From: an uncultured Chloroflexia bacterium
GTDB taxonomy: Bacteria; Chloroflexota; Limnocylindria; Limnocylindrales; CSP1-4
Direction of reading: 5' to 3'
DNA: 64,000 nt
NCBI GenBank assembly: GCA_963776385.1
Contig: CAVZME010000011.1
Location: 285,307-349,306 of the forward strand
Position numbers and translations under genes: made by a program. The notes under the pieces were generated by a model. The model was not told where the DNA came from. It worked only from the letters and a program-made list of their open reading frames with translations, and ran no database searches. This document shows positions 14,954 to 48,767 of this stretch, one piece after another (the first letter of the stretch is position 1; each line of letters opens with the position of its first letter).

Positions 14954-15661
14954 ATGTGCGGACGGTTCACCCAGCAGCGGCCGGCTTCGGAGCTGGCCGA
15001 GATCTTCGGCGCAGAACCACTGATCGACGACCCGGGCGGTCACTACAACGTCGCCCCGACCGACGAAGCCGCGGTCGTGGTCCAGCGCGAGGAGCGTCGT
15101 GCCATCACGGCCTACCGCTGGGGGCTCATCCCGCATTGGGCCAAGGACGCCAAGGTCGGATCGCGGATGTTCAACGCGCGGGCCGAGACCATCACCAGCA
15201 GTCCCGCATTCCGCGACGCGTTCGCCCGCAAACGGTGCCTCGTCCCGGTCGATTCGTTCTACGAGTGGAAGCGCGAGGGCAAGATCCGTCAGCCCTTCCG
15301 GGTCGTCCGCCGCGATGGCATGCCCCTCGCGCTCGCGGGCCTGTGGGCAGGCTGGCGCGACCCGGAGACGGACATCGTCCGGCGGACGTTCACGATCATC
15401 ACCACCACGCCGAACGATGCCCTGATCGACCTTCACGACCGGATGCCTGTGGTGATCTCCGAGGACGCCTGGGAACGCTGGCTCGATCCATCACCGCCCG
15501 ACCCGTCCGAGCTCATGGGATTGCTGGCGCCGAATGATGCAGTCGACCTCGAGGTCTATGCGGTGGAGCGGTTCGTCAATGACGTCCGACGCGATGGGCC
15601 GGAGCTGATACAGCCGCTGATGCCGGTGCCGGCCGATCCGGTCCTGTTCGACGGCCACTGA
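14954..15661 (+). CDS. yedK: SOS response-associated peptidase (SRAP/YedK/HMCES), abasic-site protection
   Basis: MCGRF N-terminus, YNVAPT, WGLIP, FNARAET, FYEW, HDRMP. Confidence 0.96.
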   Translation: MCGRFTQQRPASELAEIFGAEPLIDDPGGHYNVAPTDEAAVVVQREERRAITAYRWGLIPHWAKDAKVGSRMFNARAETITSSPAFRDAFARKRCLVPVDSFYEWKREGKIRQPFRVVRRDGMPLALAGLWAGWRDPETDIVRRTFTIITTTPNDALIDLHDRMPVVISEDAWERWLDPSPPDPSELMGLLAPNDAVDLEVYAVERFVNDVRRDGPELIQPLMPVPADPVLFDGH

Positions 15662-15673
15662 GCCGGATCTGCC

Positions 15674-16340
15674 TCAGTCGTCCGTCACGCCCGTCCAGCC
15701 GTCGGAGCCGATGGACGCCTGGAATGCCTCCTCCGGCTCGATCCCATCATCGAGCGCCGCGGCGAATGAACCGACGAGGTCGGTGAAGGCGCCGTCGGGA
15801 TCGTCGACAGGCGCCTCGAACACGATGACGTCGGCTGGCAGGTCGTCCGGGACCGGGGAGCCGGCCGAGATGACGAGGACCATCCGCGCCTCGGCCCAGC
15901 GTGCCGCGTCGGACACGACCGTGATGACATCGGCGCGTGCCGGCTCGGCGACGACCACGACCCCGAATTCGGTCAGGTAGCGCAGGCCGAGATCGACATC
16001 GGCGGCATCGATCGCCGGGCCGTCGGTCAGCGATGGCCGGTCGCGGCTCGGGATCGAGCGCCACGGCCGCTGGGTCGGCCGGCGCCTCGTCCTCTTCGGC
16101 GGCCACCGGTTCGAGCGGTGTCGCTCGAGCAGATTCGCGGAGCAAGGCGACATGACCGACAGCGCCGCGAGCCAGGTCGAGGACCACACCGTCGGCGGTG
16201 GTGTCGTCGCCGGTCTTCCCGACGAGCTGGACGGTCCCGCCCGCCCGGGCCGCGGCCAGGGCCACACGCGATGACATCCCTGCCGCCGAGATGGTGCCAT
16301 CCGTGAGGCGACCGATGGGAGAGCCGATGACGACGATCAC
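15674..16340 (-). CDS. Degenerate PfkB/ribokinase-like protein (frameshift near 16035)
   Basis: VALAAARAGG.VQLVGKTGDD matches the PfkB N-terminal signature; no GAGD motif. Confidence 0.6.
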
Positions 16341-16373: not shown

Positions 16374-17147
16374 TCAGCCTGGACCACTCCCGCCGCCATC
16401 GTCGCTGCCACCGCCGCCACTCCCGCTGTTGTCCGTGCCCGTCGGCTGGGGCGTGTCGGCTGGCTGAGGCGTGTGGTCGTCGTCGGGTGTCTCGGTCGGT
16501 CGGGGTGTCCTGGCCGGTCTCGGTGTCTCCGTCGGTCTGGCGGTCCCGCCGGGCTGCGCGGTCTCGGTCGGATCGGCCGCGTCACCGGTTTCGGCCGACT
16601 CGCTGGGCTCGGCGGACTCGCTGGGCTCGGCGGACTCGCTCGGTTCGGCCGACTGGCTCGGTTCGAGCGACGTCGGGCTGACGACAGGAGCGGACGGCGC
16701 GGTCGGGTTCGAGCTCTGTTCGGGGGCGGTCGTCGGCCCATTCGGTCCGATGAGCGCGCCCACGGTGAGCGCCGTGACCCCGGTCATCGCGCCAGCCGCG
16801 AGGATGACCAGCAGCACGAACGCGAGAGCCTGCATCCGCACCGCCATCGGCCGGCCGCCCGTCGTGGCCACGCCCCACGATTCGCGCACGGCGACGAAGA
16901 AGGCTCCGACCCGACCGCCCCGGACGGCTGCGGCCGGCTTGACGACGAGTCGCGGCGCGGGCTCGGCTGCGATCGCAGCCATGACCCGGTCCTCGAATCC
17001 TTCGGTCGGGCGGATGCCGACGTCGGCGCCGAGCGCCTCGAGCTCGCGGGCGGCCGCCAGGGCGTCGGCGAGCTCCGCCTGGCTCGGTTCCGGTTCGCCG
17101 GGCACGCGCAGCTCAGCGGGGTCGAAGCCGCGGTACGGCCCGGTCAC
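16374..17147 (-). CDS. Putative membrane anti-sigma factor with P/S/T/E/D-rich extracytoplasmic tail (module 1)
   Basis: Overlaps the ECF stop codon; F.DRVMAAIA..P.P motif, TM helix, AEPSES repeats, DDH/G-rich end. Confidence 0.75.
   Translation of the reverse strand: MTGPYRGFDPAELRVPGEPEPSQAELADALAAARELEALGADVGIRPTEGFEDRVMAAIAAEPAPRLVVKPAAAVRGGRVGAFFVAVRESWGVATTGGRPMAVRMQALAFVLLVILAAGAMTGVTALTVGALIGPNGPTTAPEQSSNPTAPSAPVVSPTSLEPSQSAEPSESAEPSESAEPSESAETGDAADPTETAQPGGTARPTETPRPARTPRPTETPDDDHTPQPADTPQPTGTDNSGSGGGGSDDGGGSGPG
16591..16665 (-). repeat. 18-bp tandem repeat (about 4 copies) encoding AEPSES
   Basis: cggcggactcgctgggct units on the + strand. Confidence 0.85.
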
Positions 17148-17836
17148 GCGTCACTCCCACGGTCGACGGTCTCGCGCAAGCGCAGCAGACCGCGACGCAG
17201 GTGGGTCTTCACCGTGCCGAGTGGCCGCTCCGTCTGCCGGGCGATCTCCTCGAGCGACAGGCCGCCGAAGAACCGCAGGGAGACGACTTCGCGATATGGC
17301 TCGGGAAGTGCGGCGACCGCGCTGCGCAGGTCAGCCGCTCGCTCCGAACGGAGGGCGATCGTCGCAGGGTCGGATCGAGCGCCGGTCGACATGTCGCCCA
17401 TGACCGCTTCGTCGGCCGTCCCTGGATGGGTCTTTTCCGTCGCCGCGGTCGCGTCGATCCAGGTCACCGACCGTCGCTGGCCGACGCGCCGCAAGGCGAT
17501 CCGGATCGCGATCCGCGTCAGCCATGCGCCGAACGGGCCGTCGCCGCGCCAGCTCGCGAGCGAGCGATAGGCGGTCACGAACGCCTCCTGGCTCACGTCC
17601 TCTGCCTCGTGCAGGTCGCCGAGGATGCGGTGGCTGGCACGCACGACGGATGCGGATTCGCGCTCGACGAGTTGGCGGAATGCGTCCCGGTCGCCGCCGA
17701 GCACGGCGTCCACGATCGAGCGGTCGCTGTGGTCATCGTCGGGTCCGGTGGCGGAAGATGGTCGAAGGATCGCCTGACTCCGTGACGCTGGTGACGGTTC
17801 GGGATCCGGCACGCCGGATCCGCTCGTCCCCATCAT
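17144..17836 (-). CDS. ECF sigma factor (module 1)
   Basis: GDRDAFRQLVERE, EAEDVSQEAF, WRGDGPFGAWL, LPEPYREVVSLRFF..LSLEEIA...LGTVKTHL; start uncertain. Confidence 0.93.
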   Translation of the reverse strand: MMGTSGSGVPDPEPSPASRSQAILRPSSATGPDDDHSDRSIVDAVLGGDRDAFRQLVERESASVVRASHRILGDLHEAEDVSQEAFVTAYRSLASWRGDGPFGAWLTRIAIRIALRRVGQRRSVTWIDATAATEKTHPGTADEAVMGDMSTGARSDPATIALRSERAADLRSAVAALPEPYREVVSLRFFGGLSLEEIARQTERPLGTVKTHLRRGLLRLRETVDRGSDA

Positions 17837-17907
17837 GCGCGAGGGCGAACGGATCCATCGGCTGTCGGGCCGTCCGCCCACCTGGACGGGCGTCGCCGGA
17901 TCGGACG

Positions 17908-18403
17908 TCAGTCGTCGCCGCCGCCGCCATGTCCGCTGTCGCCGCCACCATCGGGGCCGCTGTCGTCGCTGCCGTCGTGGCCGCTCGAGCCGCTGTTGTC
18001 GTCCGTCGTGTCCGTAGCGTCATCACCGTTGTTGTCGGTCGCTTCGGCACCGTCGTTGCCGTCCGACGCGCTGTCATGGCCGCTGGTCCCGCCGTGGTCG
18101 TCGGTCGCATCCGGGGCGTCGTTGCCGTTGTCGTCGGTCGCGTCGGGTGCATCGACGCTGTTGTCGTCGGTCGGGATCGCGAGCTCGAGGACGGAGTCCT
18201 CGGTGGGCTCGGCGGGTCTCGGTGGGCTCGGCGGTCTCGGTGGGCTCCGCGGTCTCGGTGGGCTCGGCGGCCTGCTGGCTCTGATCGCGATCGCTGCGAC
18301 CCGACCCCATCAGGCCATCCGCGGCGAAAGCGGCACCAGCCACGAGGAACAGGGTCATCGCGGCGACGGCCGACCCGCGTACCACCTTGACATCGTTGCG
18401 CAT
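17908..18403 (-). CDS. Secreted Asp/His/Gly-rich low-complexity protein (module 1; frameshift near 18215)
   Basis: Signal peptide ending AAFA-A, AEPTET repeats, then DATDDN/DDHGG/GHDG acidic tail to TGA at 17908. Confidence 0.75.
18200..18270 (-). repeat. 18-bp tandem repeat (about 4 copies) encoding AEPTET
   Basis: gtctcggtgggctcggcg units on the + strand. Confidence 0.85.
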
Positions 18404-18440
18404 CTCGTTCGTCTCCCCTGGGCCCGGTCGACGACCGGCT

Positions 18441-18476
18441 GTACTCCCTTGAGACGACGGGCGCGGAAAAGGTTTC
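18441..18476 (-). promoter_or_regulatory. Putative ECF promoter of module 1
   Basis: Minus strand reads GAAACCTT-N16-TCAA-GG-GAGTAC, conserved with identical spacing at 48732-48767. Confidence 0.75.
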
Positions 18477-20005
18477 AGCCGGGGTCGGTGACCTCGTCGG
18501 CGTCGCCATCGAGGCCGGCGACGTCCGGATCCTCGGCACCGGCCGTCGGGCCGGCCTGGCCCTCGTCATCGATCGGCCCGGGGAGCCCCGATTCGTCGGT
18601 CGGGGCCGATTCGACGGGCGCGTCGTCGCGCTCGATCACGATCCGGCCCAGGCCGGCCGCCTCGAGGTCCGCCCCGAATGCATCGACGTCGCCGACCAGG
18701 ACGATCGCGGCGTCATCCACGTGGAGATGCGCCTGGGCAGCGGCGGCGACCGCATCGACGTCGACCGCTTCGATGTTCGCGCGATAGCTGACCAGTTCCT
18801 CGACACCGAGTCCATGGACGGCGAGGCTGCCGAGCGCACCTACGACCGCGCCCGCGGTCTCGAACCGGAGGGGGAAGACGCCGATGAGGAAGTCGCGCGC
18901 CGCCACGAGCTCGGACTGCTCGACGCGCGCATCGCGCATCCGTTCGAGCTCGGCAAGCATGTCGACGAGGGCCGGCACGGTGACCTCGGTGTTGACCGCG
19001 GCGCGCGACGAGAACGGGCCCGCCCCGCGGCGCATGTCGAAGCCGGCACCAGCGCCGTACGTGTAGCCCTTCTCCTCGCGGAGCTTCATGTTCAGTCGCG
19101 AATTGAAGAGCCCGCCGAGGATCGCACTCATCACGGACACCGCGTGGAAGTCGGGGATGCGACGCGGCAGGCCGCGATGTCCGACGCGGATCTCCGTCTG
19201 GACCGAGCCCGGCCGATGGACGACGCGGACGACGCGACCCGTCGTCGCGCCACTATCGACGACCGCACTGACTCCACCCGATCCCCCGGTCCACGACCCG
19301 AACAGCCGCTCGGCTGCCTCGGCGACGTCGAAACCGCCCAGATCGCCACCCACGACGAGCGTGGTCCGGCCGGGTCGTCGCGATCGTTCGTAGGTCTCGC
19401 GCAGATCGGCCGCGGTCGAGGCCCTCGACCGTCTCACGGATCCCGCCGGATGGACGGTGGTACGGCGAGGCGTCGGCGTAGATCGTCCCGATGAATGCCT
19501 CCTCGACACGTCGGCGCGGGTCGGCCTGGGCCTGGAGGATGTCGTTGAGTCGTTCATCGCGGATGCGTTCGACCTCGGAGACCGGGAAACTCGGCTCGAG
19601 GAAGACCTCGGCGACAAGATCGAGCGCGGCGCCGAGGCGGGCAGCAGGCACGTCGACCGAGACCGACAGGGCGTCCCACCCGGCGTCCGCATGGAGCGAT
19701 GCGCCGAGTCGTTCGCCCGCTTCGACCAGTTCGATGGCGTCACGGCGTGCGGTGCCCTCGGTCAGCGCCCGGCCGGCCAGCACCGTCGCGCCGGCCTTGT
19801 CGGCGGGCTCCTCGGCGGCGCCGCCGGTCACGATCAACGAGGCGGAGACGAGCGGGCGCCCCGGCAGGTCCACGACGACGATCGACAGGCCGTTCGCGAG
19901 GGCGTGGGTCGTGACGGCCGGGAATTCATACGGACGCGGGCTGCCGGGCTGTGGCCGCTCTGACACGACCGGGCCGTCGCGACGGGGGTCCACGGTCGTG
20001 CTCAC
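18475..20005 (-). CDS. M16B peptidase, non-catalytic subunit (frameshift near 19415)
   Basis: LANGL.IVVV, LGGLFNSRLNMKLREEKGYTY (R/Y motif); no HxxEH. Confidence 0.92.
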
Positions 20006-21309
20006 GCCGCAACCTCGCCATCCGCCGTCGCGCCTTCGGGAAGATAGGTCAGGACGAGCCGATTGTCCGGCCGGAAGACCGTGGCCGCGACATCGCGGAT
20101 GGCCTCCGGGGTCACCGCCAGGTAGCGCGGCAGCATCCGGTTGATGAGTCCCGGATCGTCGAACAGCGTCGTGTACATCGACAGGCGGTCGGCACGCTCC
20201 TCGACACGCTGGAGGGCACCGAGCTCGTCGGATTCGGTCAGCGCCTTGGCGCGGGCGAGCTCGTCGTCGCTCACGAGGTCGGTCGCGAGCCGGTCGAGCT
20301 CCTCGTGGAGGACGGCCTCGACACGCTCGACCGCGACCCCGGGCCGGACGGTGGCCCAGCCGGCGGTGACGGACGCTCCCCCGGTGAACCCGAGAGTGAA
20401 GATCGCGACATCCTGGGCGATCCGCTCGTCGCGGACGAGGCGCCGGTTGAGCCGGCTGCCCTTGCCGCCCGACAGGATCTGGCCGGCCAGGTCGAGGGCA
20501 TCGAGGCGGGTGTCGCCGAAGACCGGTGCCCGGAAGCCGACGTGGACACGCGGCAGCGGCACCTTGTCGTGGACGATCTCGCGCCGCTCCCCGCCCAGGG
20601 TCGCCGGCAGCGACAGGTCGCCCAGGCGCGGGATGTCCGGGTTCGGCGGGATGGCCCCGAAGTAGAGTTCGGCCGCCCGAAGGACGTCGTCGGTGTCGAC
20701 CGCGCCCACCACCGACAGGACGGCGTTGTTCGGTGCGTAGTAGGTCCGGAAGAACGCGCTGACATCCTCGACCGACGCGGCATTGAGGTCGTCCATCGAG
20801 CCGATCGTCGAGTGGTGGTACGGGTGTTCCGGCGGGAACAGGTGACCCTGGAGCTTCTCCTGGAACGAGCCATACGGCCGGTTGTCGTACGACCAGCGCT
20901 TCTCGTTCTTGACGACTTCGCGCTGGTTGTCGAGGTTCTCCTGGCTGAGCGCATCGAGCAGCGTCGCCATCCGATCTGCCTCGAGCCAGAGGGCGAGCTC
21001 CACCTGATGGGCCGGCATGGTCTCGAAATAGTTCGTCCGGTCAAGCCAGGTCGAGCCGTTCATCGTCCCGCCGGCTGCCTGGACGAGAGCGATGTGCTCG
21101 GCCTTGGCGACATGACGCGAGCCCTGGAACATGACGTGCTCGAAGAGGTGGGCGAAGCCGGTCTTGCCGGGGACCTCGTGCTTGGAGCCCACGTCATACC
21201 AGAGGTTGACGGCGACCACCGGGGCGAGATGGTCCTCGGCCACGATGATGCGGAGTCCGTTGTCGAGGCGACGGTCGCTGAAGGCGACTTCAGGGACGGT
21301 GATGGGCAC
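20002..21309 (-). CDS. M16B peptidase, catalytic subunit
   Basis: GFAHLFEHVMF (HxxEH), NGST..DRTNY, LEADRM, VVKNEKR. Confidence 0.96.
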   Translation of the reverse strand: MPITVPEVAFSDRRLDNGLRIIVAEDHLAPVVAVNLWYDVGSKHEVPGKTGFAHLFEHVMFQGSRHVAKAEHIALVQAAGGTMNGSTWLDRTNYFETMPAHQVELALWLEADRMATLLDALSQENLDNQREVVKNEKRWSYDNRPYGSFQEKLQGHLFPPEHPYHHSTIGSMDDLNAASVEDVSAFFRTYYAPNNAVLSVVGAVDTDDVLRAAELYFGAIPPNPDIPRLGDLSLPATLGGERREIVHDKVPLPRVHVGFRAPVFGDTRLDALDLAGQILSGGKGSRLNRRLVRDERIAQDVAIFTLGFTGGASVTAGWATVRPGVAVERVEAVLHEELDRLATDLVSDDELARAKALTESDELGALQRVEERADRLSMYTTLFDDPGLINRMLPRYLAVTPEAIRDVAATVFRPDNRLVLTYLPEGATADGEVAA

Positions 21310-46710: not shown

Positions 46711-47457
46711 CTAGCCGCCCGAGTCGGAACCGTCGTCTCGAGAGTCGTCGCTGCTGCTGCCGCCGTCCTCGCCGTCTCCACTCGTTCCGTGGTCGTCCGG
46801 TTCCGGCGTCTCCGACGCATGGTCGTCGGTGGTCGCGTGGCCACCGTCATCGACTCCGTCGGCTGGGTCGTCGCCACCGGACGCGTGGTCGTCCCCGCTG
46901 TCCGATCCGTCCCCGTCGTGGCTGTCGGTCGCCTGATCGCGCCCATCGTCGGCCGATCCCGCGGTCGGGTGCGCCGCGGGCGCGATCCCCTTGCCCCCGC
47001 TCGGGCGATCCGTCGGGCGGACGATGGCGGGAGCCGGGCTCGGGTCAGGCGTCGGCGGCGGGGCCGACTGCATACCTGGTCCCACGGACGGCGTGCTGGG
47101 AAGCGCCGCGGGCGCATCGATCACGCGGGACTGCTCCATCCAGGGTGGGACGACGACCGAGACCGCGGCGGCTGCCGCGAGTGTGGCGGTCCCGAAGACG
47201 AAGGCCACCGCCATGACCAGGGCGAACGACCTCGCCCGGACGCGCGGCGCGATCGGCCATGTCCGCACCGTCCCGAGGTGCCACGCGACGATCAGCGCGC
47301 TGGCGGCAGTCCGCAAGGAGCGGAGGCGGATGGCTTCGAGGAACGTCCGGGTCGGCGAGGGCTGCGGTGCGTGGGCGATCGCCTGCATGACGTGGTCCGC
47401 GAACCGGTCCTGGACGGTCCCGTCGACCTCGCCATCATGCGGCTGCCAGGGCCTCAC
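46711..47457 (-). CDS. Putative membrane anti-sigma factor with acidic DDH-rich tail (module 2)
   Basis: Overlaps the ECF stop; FADHVMQAIA..P.P motif homologous to 16374-17147; TM helix; DDH repeats. Confidence 0.75.
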   Translation of the reverse strand: MRPWQPHDGEVDGTVQDRFADHVMQAIAHAPQPSPTRTFLEAIRLRSLRTAASALIVAWHLGTVRTWPIAPRVRARSFALVMAVAFVFGTATLAAAAAVSVVVPPWMEQSRVIDAPAALPSTPSVGPGMQSAPPPTPDPSPAPAIVRPTDRPSGGKGIAPAAHPTAGSADDGRDQATDSHDGDGSDSGDDHASGGDDPADGVDDGGHATTDDHASETPEPDDHGTSGDGEDGGSSSDDSRDDGSDSGG

Positions 47458-48020
47458 AGGACCGACCTCGGTTCGAGCCTGTCGCGCAACCGAGCCATGC
47501 CACGCGACAGGCGGGACTTGACGGTGCCGATCGGATGGCTGGTGAGACGGGCGATCTCTTCGAGTGAGAGGTCGCCGTAGAACCGAAGGACGACGACATC
47601 GCGCTGGGCTGCCGGCAACGTCGCGATGGCGTCAGCGATCGCTGCCCGGTCTTCGACGCCGAGTGCCTGGGCTTCGGGATCCATGTCCGCGTCTGGTCGT
47701 GCTCGCCGTGGATCCAGGATCTGATCGTCGAGGGTCACGATGTTCGGCCGCGCTGCGACGCGGGCGATCGCCACTCGAACGGCGATCCGCCGCAACCACG
47801 CACCGAACGGCCCATCGCCACGGTAACTGGCGAGTGCCTGGAACGCCTGGACGAACGTGTCCTGCGCAGCGTCCTGGGCCTCGGTCGGATCCCGAAGGAT
47901 CCGGCTGCATGCCGCGATCACCGAGACGGACTCGCGCTCGACGAACACGCGGAAGGCCTCACGATCTCCGCCCAGGATGGCGTCGATGATCTGCCGATCG
48001 TTCGCTACCGCATCGATCAC
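47454..48020 (-). CDS. ECF sigma factor (module 2), paralog of 17144-17836
   Basis: GGDREAFRVFVERES, ASYRGDGPFGAWL, LRFY.DLSLEEIA...IGTVKSRL. Confidence 0.94.
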   Translation of the reverse strand: MIDAVANDRQIIDAILGGDREAFRVFVERESVSVIAACSRILRDPTEAQDAAQDTFVQAFQALASYRGDGPFGAWLRRIAVRVAIARVAARPNIVTLDDQILDPRRARPDADMDPEAQALGVEDRAAIADAIATLPAAQRDVVVLRFYGDLSLEEIARLTSHPIGTVKSRLSRGMARLRDRLEPRSVL

Positions 48021-48172: not shown

Positions 48173-48689
48173 TCAGTCGTCGCTTCCGTCATCGCCGCCG
48201 TCGTCGTGCTCGTCGCCGCCGTCCTGGTGCTCGCCGTCGTGCGAGTCATCGTGCTCGCCGTCCTTGGCCTCGTCGTTGTTCTCATCGGCGTCGTCGTTGT
48301 CGTTGTCCTCTGCCTGGTTACCGGCATCGGACGACACGATATGGGTGGCTGGCTTTGCCTTGTGGGCCTTGGCGGGCTTCGGGGCCTCCGGCGCGACCTG
48401 ATCGTCGTTCTCGCCCTGATCGCCGGCCTCATCCTGATCGCCCGTCAGAGCGTCATCCTCGGCCTTGCCGGCGAGGTCGTCCTCGTCGCCCTGCTGGTCG
48501 TCCACCGCGGCGTCCGGCGGCTGCGGCATCATCCAACCCGCTGTCAACGACGGCGTTCACGGTCGACGGCGACAGCGCCGCGTACGGAGCATTGAACACG
48601 GCGTCATGGGCGAACGAGGCCCCGACGACGAGGATGAGTGCGACACTCGCGATCGCGAGGCTCCGCGTGAATCGATGGGTCCTGGACAT
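48173..48689 (-). CDS. Secreted Asp/Glu/His-rich low-complexity protein (module 2; frameshift near 48520)
   Basis: Signal peptide ending ASFA-H, acidic tail ending DGEHDDSHDGEHQDGGDEHDDGGDDGSDD. Confidence 0.75.
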
Positions 48690-48731: not shown

Positions 48732-48767
48732 GTACTCGTTTGAGCGGGTTCGGCAGCGGAAGGTTCC
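48732..48767 (-). promoter_or_regulatory. Putative ECF promoter of module 2
   Basis: Minus strand reads GGAACCTT-N16-TCAA-AC-GAGTAC, same spacing as 18441-18476. Confidence 0.75.

Follow-up and report, generated by a model that had tools for sequence, protein, structure and literature searches.

Two extracytoplasmic function sigma factor modules of an uncultured Chloroflexota bacterium, each led by a putative secreted protein that resembles the outer tail of the module's predicted anti-sigma factor

Why should the first gene of an extracytoplasmic function (ECF) sigma factor module encode a secreted, acidic protein that looks like the outer part of the module's own membrane protein, and why should the same arrangement be found twice within a short stretch of one genome? 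These questions are raised by a 64-kb stretch of DNA (hereafter the window) from contig CAVZME010000011.1 of an uncultured Chloroflexota bacterium of the CSP1-4 lineage. The assembly that holds the window, GCA_963776385.1, is called G000 here; G-codes denote genomes, and L-codes denote loci fetched from relatives. A first-pass annotation, made from the letters alone, had described two modules with a common order of promoter, secreted protein, ECF sigma factor and single-pass membrane protein, and this order, with a promoter-like site in front, was seen at both loci, in each case on the minus strand. The product of the first gene is referred to as S1 in module 1 and S2 in module 2 (S for both), and the outer part of the membrane protein as the tail. 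Our tentative answer, to which we would give somewhat less than an even chance, is that each copy is an autoregulated ECF operon, specific to one soil-dwelling family of the Limnocylindrales, in which S competes for, or buffers, whatever acts on the tail. The components of the two modules are as follows.

18451..18477, minus strand: promoter-like site of module 1, ECF-type (-35 TGAAACC at 18477-18471, 15-nt spacer, GTCTC at 18455-18451; read from the sequence)
17908..18403, minus strand: S1 gene, for a secreted acidic repeat protein (ATG at 18403, TGA stop at 17910-17908; from three-frame translation)
17144..17881, minus strand: ECF sigma 1 (the open reading frame (ORF) starts with GTG at 17881; relatives share a Met at 17833)
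16374..17147, minus strand: anti-sigma 1, 257 residues (GTG start overlapping the sigma 1 stop in GTGA)
48741..48767, minus strand: promoter-like site of module 2, ECF-type (GGAACC at 48767-48762, CGCTCA at 48746-48741)
48173..48689, minus strand: S2 gene, for a secreted acidic protein (ATG at 48689, stop at 48175-48173; signal peptide MSRTHRFTRSLAIASVALILVVGASFA)
47454..48020, minus strand: ECF sigma 2, a paralogue of sigma 1 without its N-terminal extension
46711..47457, minus strand: anti-sigma 2 (GTGA overlap with the sigma 2 stop)

The likeness between S and the tail is plainest in module 1. When all 3.85 Mb of the assembly are translated in six frames, the motif AEP[ST]E[ST] turns up six times, three times in S1 and three times in tail 1, and its restriction to these two genes bears out the earlier statement that the S and the tail of this copy carry the same kind of polypeptide. 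The repeat numbers given at that time need a small correction. S1 does have the units and the D/H/G tail, but AEPTET is present three times, and what had been counted as the fourth unit reads AEPTED and lies beyond a +1 frame shift; tail 1 has AEPSES three times, DDH and the D/G end. Module 2 has no AEPTET repeats. Its S2 and tail 2 are both acidic and D/H/G-rich, and in both a basic K/A/P island stands ahead of the acidic end.

The same words recur in S and tail across relatives. Among 63 thinned loci, with expectations derived from composition shuffles, AEPTE was observed 98 times in S and 28 times in the tails (0.2 expected in each), DDHG 71 times in S (0.8 expected) and 19 times in the tails (0.1 expected), and NSGPG 14 and 8 times, respectively (0.0 expected in both). 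When 36 S sequences were aligned by hhalign with the 36 matching C-terminal parts of the anti-sigma, the match ran from just past the hydrophobic helix through the repeats with a score of 93.6 (98.4%), whereas six column-shuffled controls scored 5.7-12.2. A control with the alignment reversed still scored 57.4 (95.8%), and therefore much of the score stems from repeat periodicity and is no proof of common descent. Judged in this way, the likeness is real, if carried largely by near-palindromic repeats. Homology of the S signal peptide to the transmembrane (TM) helix of the anti-sigma was also considered and is not supported, the hhalign match beginning past both hydrophobic helices.

We also compared S with the tail of its own genome and with other tails, by the 4-mers and 5-mers shared. 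The own-genome tail was favoured by ratios of 1.48 and 1.64 (n=92; 0 of 5000 permutations), and by ratios of 1.78 and 2.71 among 14 thinned loci (1 and 2 of 5000 permutations), although these permutation counts overstate the significance because related genomes are not independent. The pattern indicates that S and the tail co-vary across genomes; independent drift would not by itself favour same-genome pairing. A cross-test within three genomes pointed the same way, the module's own partner winning in 5/6 cases at k=3 and in 6/6 at k=4, with small margins.

What kind of protein is S? Across relatives its plan is a signal peptide (A-F-A/A-D-G), a short linker, from three to at least 12 units of TAEPTE type, a part that is acidic and rich in D, H, G, S and N, and a GGDD-like end. 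The mature sequences vary greatly among relatives while this plan is retained. The consensus of the N-terminus, MRxxxRLxRGLGxxxVxLFLxxGAAFAADx, has the features of a Sec signal as read by eye (a basic n-region, a hydrophobic stretch of 13-20 residues and an A-x-A site), and we infer that S is exported by Sec, cleaved and intrinsically disordered. A search of the ESM Atlas with intact S gave unnamed Chloroflexota and Actinomycetota clusters only (0.93), and neither the two S proteins nor the two membrane proteins match any Pfam or NCBIfam family.

The arrangement is by no means confined to the window. We built an alignment and profile (A1) of the N-terminal domain (N-domain) of the membrane protein (residues 1-135) from 30 members. 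The N-domain is present in 30 of the 36 other genomes of the genus and in 0/24 of a small-genome sister family, and across the wider family the A1 profile detects it in 127 of 200 further genomes, which cover 39 of 49 genera when G000's own genus is counted (both tallies take in the unpublished genome G164). In a draw of genomes from the whole phylum, it was found in 12 of 18 genomes of the window's family (f1), in 0/3 of family f2, in 2/16 of a third family of the class (weakly, at E about 1e-6) and in none of the remaining 313 genomes, which cover more than 70 families. Within G000 the profile matches the two membrane proteins only. As for the genomes themselves, the part of a class survey that we drew on gives about 2.4-3.2 Mb and 68% GC for CSP1-4 and about 1.3 Mb for the sister family Limnocylindraceae (PMC13212565); the GC content of G000 is 70%, and its family f1 would fit CSP1-4.

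The first-pass annotation had asked whether relatives keep the three genes in the same order, and with the N-domain profile run across genomes and the upstream regions read, S was seen at nearly all inspected loci across genera. The sigma gene adjoins the anti-sigma gene at 29 of 30 genus loci, and the 30th locus ends too early. We then counted 125 loci that combine a sigma gene and an anti-sigma gene with an intact tail and have 500 nt or more upstream, some genomes having been fetched twice. An acidic S segment is present in 115 of them; eight of the 10 others were inspected, and in three of these (L084, L113 and L150) S is frame-shifted. Among 28 loci from other genera, 17 have an S that starts with ATG and one is too short; of the remaining 10, all nine that were inspected have S, with a GTG start or a frame shift. 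S was thus seen in 26 of the 27 loci with room upstream (L059 being uninspected).

A promoter ahead of S had also been proposed, and sequence evidence supports it in the form of a conserved ECF-type site at 93 of 153 loci. The module-1 consensus upstream of S is CTGAAACCTTtt-N-GTCTCag..Gtag, with a spacer of 15 in 90 loci and of 14 in three (instances counted one per locus). In the window, the first three nucleotides of the module-1 -35 element are the TGA stop codon of the upstream gene, which encodes an M16-family peptidase. The part of the literature on B. subtilis ECF promoters that we used gives tGAAACnTTTt for the -35 and CGTC for the -10 element (PMC5758882). The module-1 site resembles this pattern and, as far as the letters go, fits the ECF autoregulatory type, with AAC in the -35 and GTC in the -10 element.

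The site is rare. Among 41 genomes of the genus, 27 contain the pattern GAAACCTT-N13-GTCTC once or twice, and none contains its reversed control; the module-1 promoter pattern written as TGAAACCTT-N13-GTCTC amounts to 1-2 sites per genome. A position weight matrix built from 82 promoter instances was used to scan the whole of G000 at a threshold of 18 bits, and only two sites exceeded it, the S1 promoter (50.3) and a site at C8:800590 (32.5). The second of these leads the following locus.

C8:800590-804000, outside the window (locus L191): second promoter match of G000, followed by a polytopic membrane protein, a coiled-coil ORF and an ApbE-family gene (3.5e-27)

We inspected 13 motif loci that lie off the contig of the anti-sigma or are a genome's second site. 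Four of them (in G000, G015, G061 and G006) precede the same polytopic membrane protein, six precede S-like genes and three differ. The polytopic membrane protein of L191, which matches cytochrome b561 weakly (0.003, below the cut-off), is likely to be a second member of the regulon. At two loci, L188 (G062:C164) and L185 (G019:C67), the exact promoter pattern stands before other genes, identified by eye as a cupredoxin-like protein with a signal peptide and a NuoF-like ORF. A scan of the coding strand inside both operons for sigma-70 promoters and terminators gave one match only, a weak terminator-like one of 6 pairs with a poor T tail, inside the anti-sigma 2 gene (47203-47218). Since the promoter has only 1-2 sites per genome and the operons have, apart from that weak match, no internal sigma-70 promoter or terminator on the coding strand, S, encoded first, appears to be the chief product of what is a very small regulon. 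Module 2 carries the promoter variant GGAACCTT-N13/14-CCGCTCA, which is also found upstream of the S2 orthologues in L039 and L042; because module 2 and its orthologues carry this variant, the sites suggest that modules 1 and 2 are insulated from each other.

Does the membrane protein qualify as an anti-sigma factor at all? In an AlphaFold2 (AF2) model of anti-sigma 1, with a mean predicted local distance difference test (pLDDT) score of 79.7, there are helices at residues 10-13, 23-42 and 51-61 (the last containing FEDRVMAAI), a juxtamembrane helix at 78-95 and a TM helix at 101-133. The outer tail, residues 136-257, is predicted to be disordered and consists of AEPSES three times, a P/T-rich stretch, DDDH and a G/S/D end. 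Anti-sigma 2 has about 16 residues ahead of its F.D.VM.AI helix, then a TM helix, a basic patch and a D/H/G-rich acidic tail end. As noted in the first pass, the zinc motif HxxxCxxC is absent from both proteins, and the family alignment shows no Cys in the N-domain. The shared F.D.VM motif also noted then holds up, with six columns of A1 invariant when copy 2 is included (F51, M56, P65, W91, P100 and R104), but the overall similarity of the two proteins is weak: BLASTP of anti-sigma 1 against anti-sigma 2 gave no match (E 15), and reciprocal single-sequence HMMER searches gave E values of 0.003 and 9.1e-4.

Searches against known families returned little. No Pfam anti-sigma family, zf-HC2 and RskA included, matched any of the 30 A1 members at E <= 1, and Pfam as a whole gave them scattered chance matches only, at E >= 0.04. 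The A1 profile found no anti-sigma among PDB sequences, only TM-helix matches to ABC transporters at E >= 0.024. Foldseek found nothing in the PDB at E <= 0.001 with the AF2 model, whose separate helices were expected to make this search uninformative. In the ESM Atlas, the N-domain matched unnamed Chloroflexota and Actinomycetota clusters only, the best at 0.87, apart from a zf-HC2 cluster at rank 16 with a score of only 0.79, which is a mere lead.

We therefore turn to the predicted complex. Sigma 1 (residues 51-245) and anti-sigma 1 (residues 1-102) were modelled together in three runs, alongside three controls. The interface score ipSAE was 0.82, 0.82 and 0.83, against 0.00 for the best of the three controls; in calibration, the mark used for this score was reached by 58 of 80 solved complexes and by 2 of 110 mismatched pairs. 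The runs share at least 75% of their contacts, and the pLDDT of the partner is at least 64. In the model, the tightest contacts are made with sigma region 2 by the conserved helix FEDRVMAAI (51-59), and region 4 is touched by an earlier helix. The prediction thus supports the binding of sigma by the membrane protein (0.82 vs 0.00), and the model supports a membrane protein that would act as an anti-sigma, holding sigma by two short cytoplasmic helices. In both copies, the GTGA start/stop overlap would couple the anti-sigma gene to the sigma gene.

The two sigmas had been called clear paralogues and are so, with 49% identity at E 7e-55. Pfam Sigma70_r2 and Sigma70_r4_2 match both (sigma 1 at 3e-14 and 1.1e-15), and no match to region 3 or region 1 is listed by Pfam for either, which is the ECF (group 4) layout. 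The model TIGR02937 (sigma70-ECF) gave 87.1 and 89.4 bits against a cut-off of 42.9. Every NCBIfam equivalog cut-off was missed by both, including those of the SigW models NF007223 (105.4 and 112.3 bits vs 209) and TIGR02948 (100.9 and 97.9 vs 243.1). By sequence, the closest solved relative of sigma 1 is B. subtilis SigW (5wuq, 1.5e-32). Sigma 1 has about 45 low-complexity residues before region 2, an extension that its orthologues share and that sigma 2 lacks. Around the likely sigma 1 start (the 17731-17881 region), the stretch RW[IL]GSPS..MMG shows simultaneous conservation in two reading frames; a conserved RNA or DNA element may lie here between S and sigma.

How old is the duplication? 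G000 has 58 sigma-70/ECF-like ORFs, but membership of this subfamily is limited to two, with 319.5 and 245.4 bits against 92.1 for the ORF ranked third. The 58 form a large repertoire for a 3.85-Mb assembly of 78% completeness, and seven of them lie within 16 kb (C8:395709-411664). In a maximum likelihood tree of 45 sigma sequences, which included four other ECFs of G000, types 1 and 2 together were split from those four with a support of 100/97. The four type-2 sigmas grouped weakly (83/76), outside a type-1 clade (88/91) that spans other genera, and type-2 anti-sigma orthologues were found at E < 1e-20 in just 4/60 other genomes of the genus. Since type 2 falls outside the type-1 clade and is kept in so few genomes, we read the duplication as an old one whose products were kept patchily; a fast rate of evolution in type 2 is the other reading.

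A difficulty in the window itself concerns S as a single gene. The first-pass annotation had treated the secreted protein in this way, and neither S1 nor S2 is one open frame here, but their orthologues are intact: single-frame S1 orthologues are found in L009, L010, L012, L016, L018 and L019, and intact S2 orthologues in L039, L041 and L042. In S1, the signal peptide ending AFA/ADG and the three AEPTET units are in one frame, and an extra C at 18214 puts the AEPTED unit and the D/H/G-rich tail (end GGGGDD) in the +1 frame. In S2, a +1 change near 48505-48525 is followed by an acidic D/E/H/G protein with the basic island KPAKAHKAK. We compared the window with the open frames of the syntenic 60 kb of the relative G010 and obtained 20 frame-change places, while the reverse comparison gave eight. 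The places in the window, all approximate, are listed here; that near 18410 is intergenic.

3808, 4651, 9380, 16043, 18410, 19418, 27197, 28676, 30877, 31718: frame-change places in the window against G010
45190, 45613, 46406, 52340, 54312, 55834, 57600, 58318, 61511, 63490: frame-change places in the window against G010, continued

Also broken in the window are genes for the M16 peptidase, a 3-hydroxyacyl-CoA dehydrogenase, MeaB and an acyl-CoA dehydrogenase. The assembly consists of 12 contigs with 78% completeness, and many of the relatives are long-read bins. We consider the S1 and S2 frame changes to be most likely assembly indels, because the S orthologues are intact, because housekeeping genes nearby are broken in the same way, because 20 changes are seen in the window and eight in the reverse comparison, and because of the state of the assembly beside its long-read relatives. 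With about one frame change per 3 kb, broken genes in this assembly are therefore not to be read as biology.

Contigs from sequencing runs also bear on the S1 shift; they come from related strains (shares 0.23-0.32), and none was shown to be the same strain. In X1, 51.1 of a depth of 72.8 is one base short at the shift (18215/18217). In X2, 2.59 and 2.42 of 14.4 are one base short, and 6.1 of 8.69 lack 19 bases at 18199, as does all of the depth in X3 (5.3 of 5.3); X7 does not cover the shift. These contigs support an intact S1 frame in the relatives and are no proof of an error in G000. The 19-nt deletion in the AEPTET array of S1 (X2 and X3) corresponds to one 18-nt unit plus the extra base, and in X7 the AEPSES array of the anti-sigma tail is longer by 18 nt (insertion at 16632). 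The repeat number thus differs among close strains in both S1 and the tail.

Several neighbours of module 1 may be recorded at this point, all named by reading the sequence. Directly upstream are two ORFs resembling M16-family peptidases (18475-21309, minus strand), and in many relatives S likewise follows an M16 C-terminus (GLGRIVIERD..., acidic at its end), a case of conserved synteny. Downstream are an ORF resembling an SOS-response-associated peptidase (14954-15661, plus strand) and a sugar-kinase-like gene (15674-16340, minus strand), the latter split over two frames, which is a further frame change.

How might such a module work? Under our proposal, the promoter would be read by the module's own sigma, of SigW/RpoE-like kind, and would drive S, sigma and anti-sigma. 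The anti-sigma, translationally coupled and single-pass, would expose only its disordered tail outside the cell. S would be in effect a free copy of the sensor's ectodomain, built of the same repeat units and acidic motifs as the tail, and an agent that acts on the tail would act on S too. Two kinds of agent could act in this way: a protease whose cut would set off regulated proteolysis, or cations, either multivalent or of transition metals, to which the Asp/His/Gly motifs would bind. Induction would then flood the envelope with a competitor or buffer, the cell would be protected and the signal turned down, which amounts to negative feedback. Both the competitor or buffer role of S and this feedback are inferred. 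The Asp/His/Gly motifs, together with a possible redox/flavin operon in the regulon, point to cations or metals as the signal, while a protease-based input is equally possible. A His-based metal site as the general mechanism was ruled out because DHG is found in only 16/63 tails and 17/63 tails have no His.

The closest rival explanation is that S is a mere effector of the regulon, such as a surface polyanion or a cation-binding protein, and that its likeness to the tail arose from duplication of the outer part of the anti-sigma and from the same extracellular constraints. We take this to be possible, although we lean against it. It is consistent with the leading position of S in an operon whose promoter recurs at no more than 1-2 places per genome, and with the second site, which precedes a polytopic membrane protein in four genomes and an ApbE-family gene in G000 and so suggests an envelope redox or metal theme; moreover, every S has at least one His, DDHG is strongly enriched in S, and a few loci without a visible S keep sigma and anti-sigma. 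What such an effector leaves unexplained is the co-variation of S and tail across genomes and the matched pair of module 2, where a basic island is followed by D/H/G acid in S2 and in tail 2 alike. The effector and buffer readings are, however, mutually compatible. A more sceptical view is that the resemblance is only a by-product of composition, exported linkers rich in P, T, E, D and G being common in a high-GC lineage. Indeed, S1, S2 and both tails are all mutually alike in their acidic D/H/G parts, the hhalign score stays high even with the alignment reversed, and other low-complexity ORFs of G000 match the tail weakly (E 0.005-0.5). Composition by itself would nevertheless have to account for a motif found nowhere else in the six frames of 3.85 Mb, for specific 4-mers and 5-mers that are 20- to 500-fold above composition shuffles in both proteins, for same-genome pairs of S and tail that exceed cross-genome pairs and for a gene order conserved across at least 39 genera, and we consider this explanation very improbable.

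It might also be argued that the frame changes are real, the S genes being pseudogenes or phase-variable through repeat slippage, so that the modules here run without S. Both S genes are +1 shifted, one of them at the edge of an 18-nt repeat array, repeat number varies among related strains (the insertion at 16632 and the deletion at 18199), and part of the related-strain depth at 18215-18217 lacks the deletion. Yet the three shifts that were read closely each consist of one extra base beside a short G/C run and not of a whole repeat unit; the housekeeping genes of the window are broken likewise, with 20 frame-change places in 64 kb, the orthologous S genes are intact, the assembly is in 12 contigs and 78% complete, and many relatives are long-read bins. 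Real frame changes thus appear improbable, if somewhat less so than an effect of composition.

Returning to the proposal that S competes for or buffers what acts on the tail, we note that several observations weigh against it, in addition to the reversed-alignment score and the non-independence of genomes described above. S may not be strictly necessary: no S was seen at the inspected loci L020 (G017), L021=L119 (G007), L104 and L148, which keep sigma and anti-sigma, and in L017 (G003) the M16 gene is followed straight by sigma with no S between them. The lack of His in 17/63 tails and the restriction of DHG to 16/63 point in the same direction. The within-genome cross-test is weak, S1 of G000 being equally close to tail 2 and to tail 1. 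Part of the related-strain depth at 18215-18217 shows no deletion and matches the reading of the window. Finally, because complexes of sigma and anti-sigma have already been solved, the pass of our complex model may reflect a likeness to them. At the S-less loci, S could have been lost, be obscured by many frame errors or have its place taken by another gene; most of them (L017, L020, L021=L119, L104 and L148) keep the promoter motif.

A bolder form of the proposal may be stated as well. In a self-mimic circuit, the sensor would be a disordered polypeptide only, the near-sole output would be a secreted free copy of it, and the signal, in the form of whatever binds or consumes this polymer (a protease or a cation, for example), would be read by competition between the tethered and the free form, with concerted evolution across the family and a second, insulated module derived from an old duplication. 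We regard this fuller picture as unlikely, though not far-fetched.

ECF sigma factors with their anti-sigmas constitute the third great mode of bacterial signalling, and to our knowledge the input sensed by most membrane anti-sigmas is not known. A sensor cut down to a disordered tail, a regulon cut down to one or two promoters and a main product that resembles the sensor together give a compact hypothesis on both the input and the feedback. The analysis also defines two families, that of the unannotated anti-sigma N-domain and that of S, both specific to a class of soil Chloroflexota that is abundant and uncultivated. Two sigma/promoter pairs that are apparently insulated (TGAAACC...GTCTC and GGAACC...CGCTCA) could become orthogonal parts. 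If true, a sensing logic based on self-mimicry would be new for sigma/anti-sigma systems within the literature covered. In that literature we found no secreted mimic of an anti-sigma ectodomain and no ECF modules in Limnocylindria, the ECF group descriptions in the supplements of PMC7826278 lying outside the coverage; the main text of the same paper, in the part consulted, contains 0 mentions of Chloroflexi. So far as examined, none of the observations that the first-pass annotation had named as speaking against it was made, namely a gene order that relatives do not keep, a membrane protein that does not bind sigma, or an architecture that already defines a characterised ECF group.

Among known systems, SigW/RsiW of B. 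subtilis offers a close parallel. SigW is the best solved sequence relative, the promoter has a similar -35 element (TGAAAC followed by a T-tract) and a CGTC-like -10 element, and in both cases a single-pass anti-sigma is encoded in the operon of its sigma, which is apparently autoregulated. SigW/RsiW signalling proceeds by regulated proteolysis through PrsW and RasP. The differences are that the N-domain described here has no sequence match to RsiW or to the PDB and no zinc motif, that its ectodomain is predicted to be wholly disordered, and that an extra secreted gene leads the operon. A comparison can also be made with the class I anti-sigma domain (ASDI), in which, according to the part of PMC7406223 that we used, region 4 of sigma is contacted by a three-helix bundle and region 2 by a fourth helix, and Hx3Cx2C is not obligatory. 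In the complex model the interface would likewise be dual, one helix lying on region 2, where ASDI has its helix 4, and an earlier one on region 4, the place of helix 1. In contrast to ASDI, however, a long and a short helix precede the juxtamembrane helix in the AF2 model, with no three-helix bundle, Hx3Cx2C is absent, no known anti-sigma family is matched, and copy 2 has only about 16 residues before its region-2 helix.

Accessory proteins outside the cytoplasm are not new to ECF systems. In E. coli sigma-E/RseA/RseB and Streptomyces sigE-cseA, an extracytoplasmic accessory modulates the outer side of the anti-sigma. RseB and CseA are folded, encoded downstream of sigma and unrelated to the outer domain of the anti-sigma, whereas S comes first, is predicted to be disordered and mirrors the tail. 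In CnrYXH of Cupriavidus, accessory envelope genes precede sigma, and the periplasmic metal sensor CnrX is folded and differs from CnrY. The position of the accessory genes before sigma, a small, helix-poor anti-sigma and a metal cation as a possible signal are points in common, and the CnrH structure 4cxf is in the list of PDB matches to sigma (5.4e-11); however, we found no further sequence relation, and we know of no likeness between sensor and accessory for CnrX and CnrY. The metal sponges of PcoE/SilE type are small, exported, disordered proteins, rich in metal-ligand residues and induced by the stress that they bind. They are what S would resemble if it acts as a buffer, but they are under two-component control, use Met/His chemistry and do not mimic the sensor. 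Set beside these systems, the modules are conventional in their ECF logic and stand apart in two respects: their anti-sigma domain is lineage-specific and poor in helices, and the gene in front encodes a putative secreted protein that resembles the disordered ectodomain.

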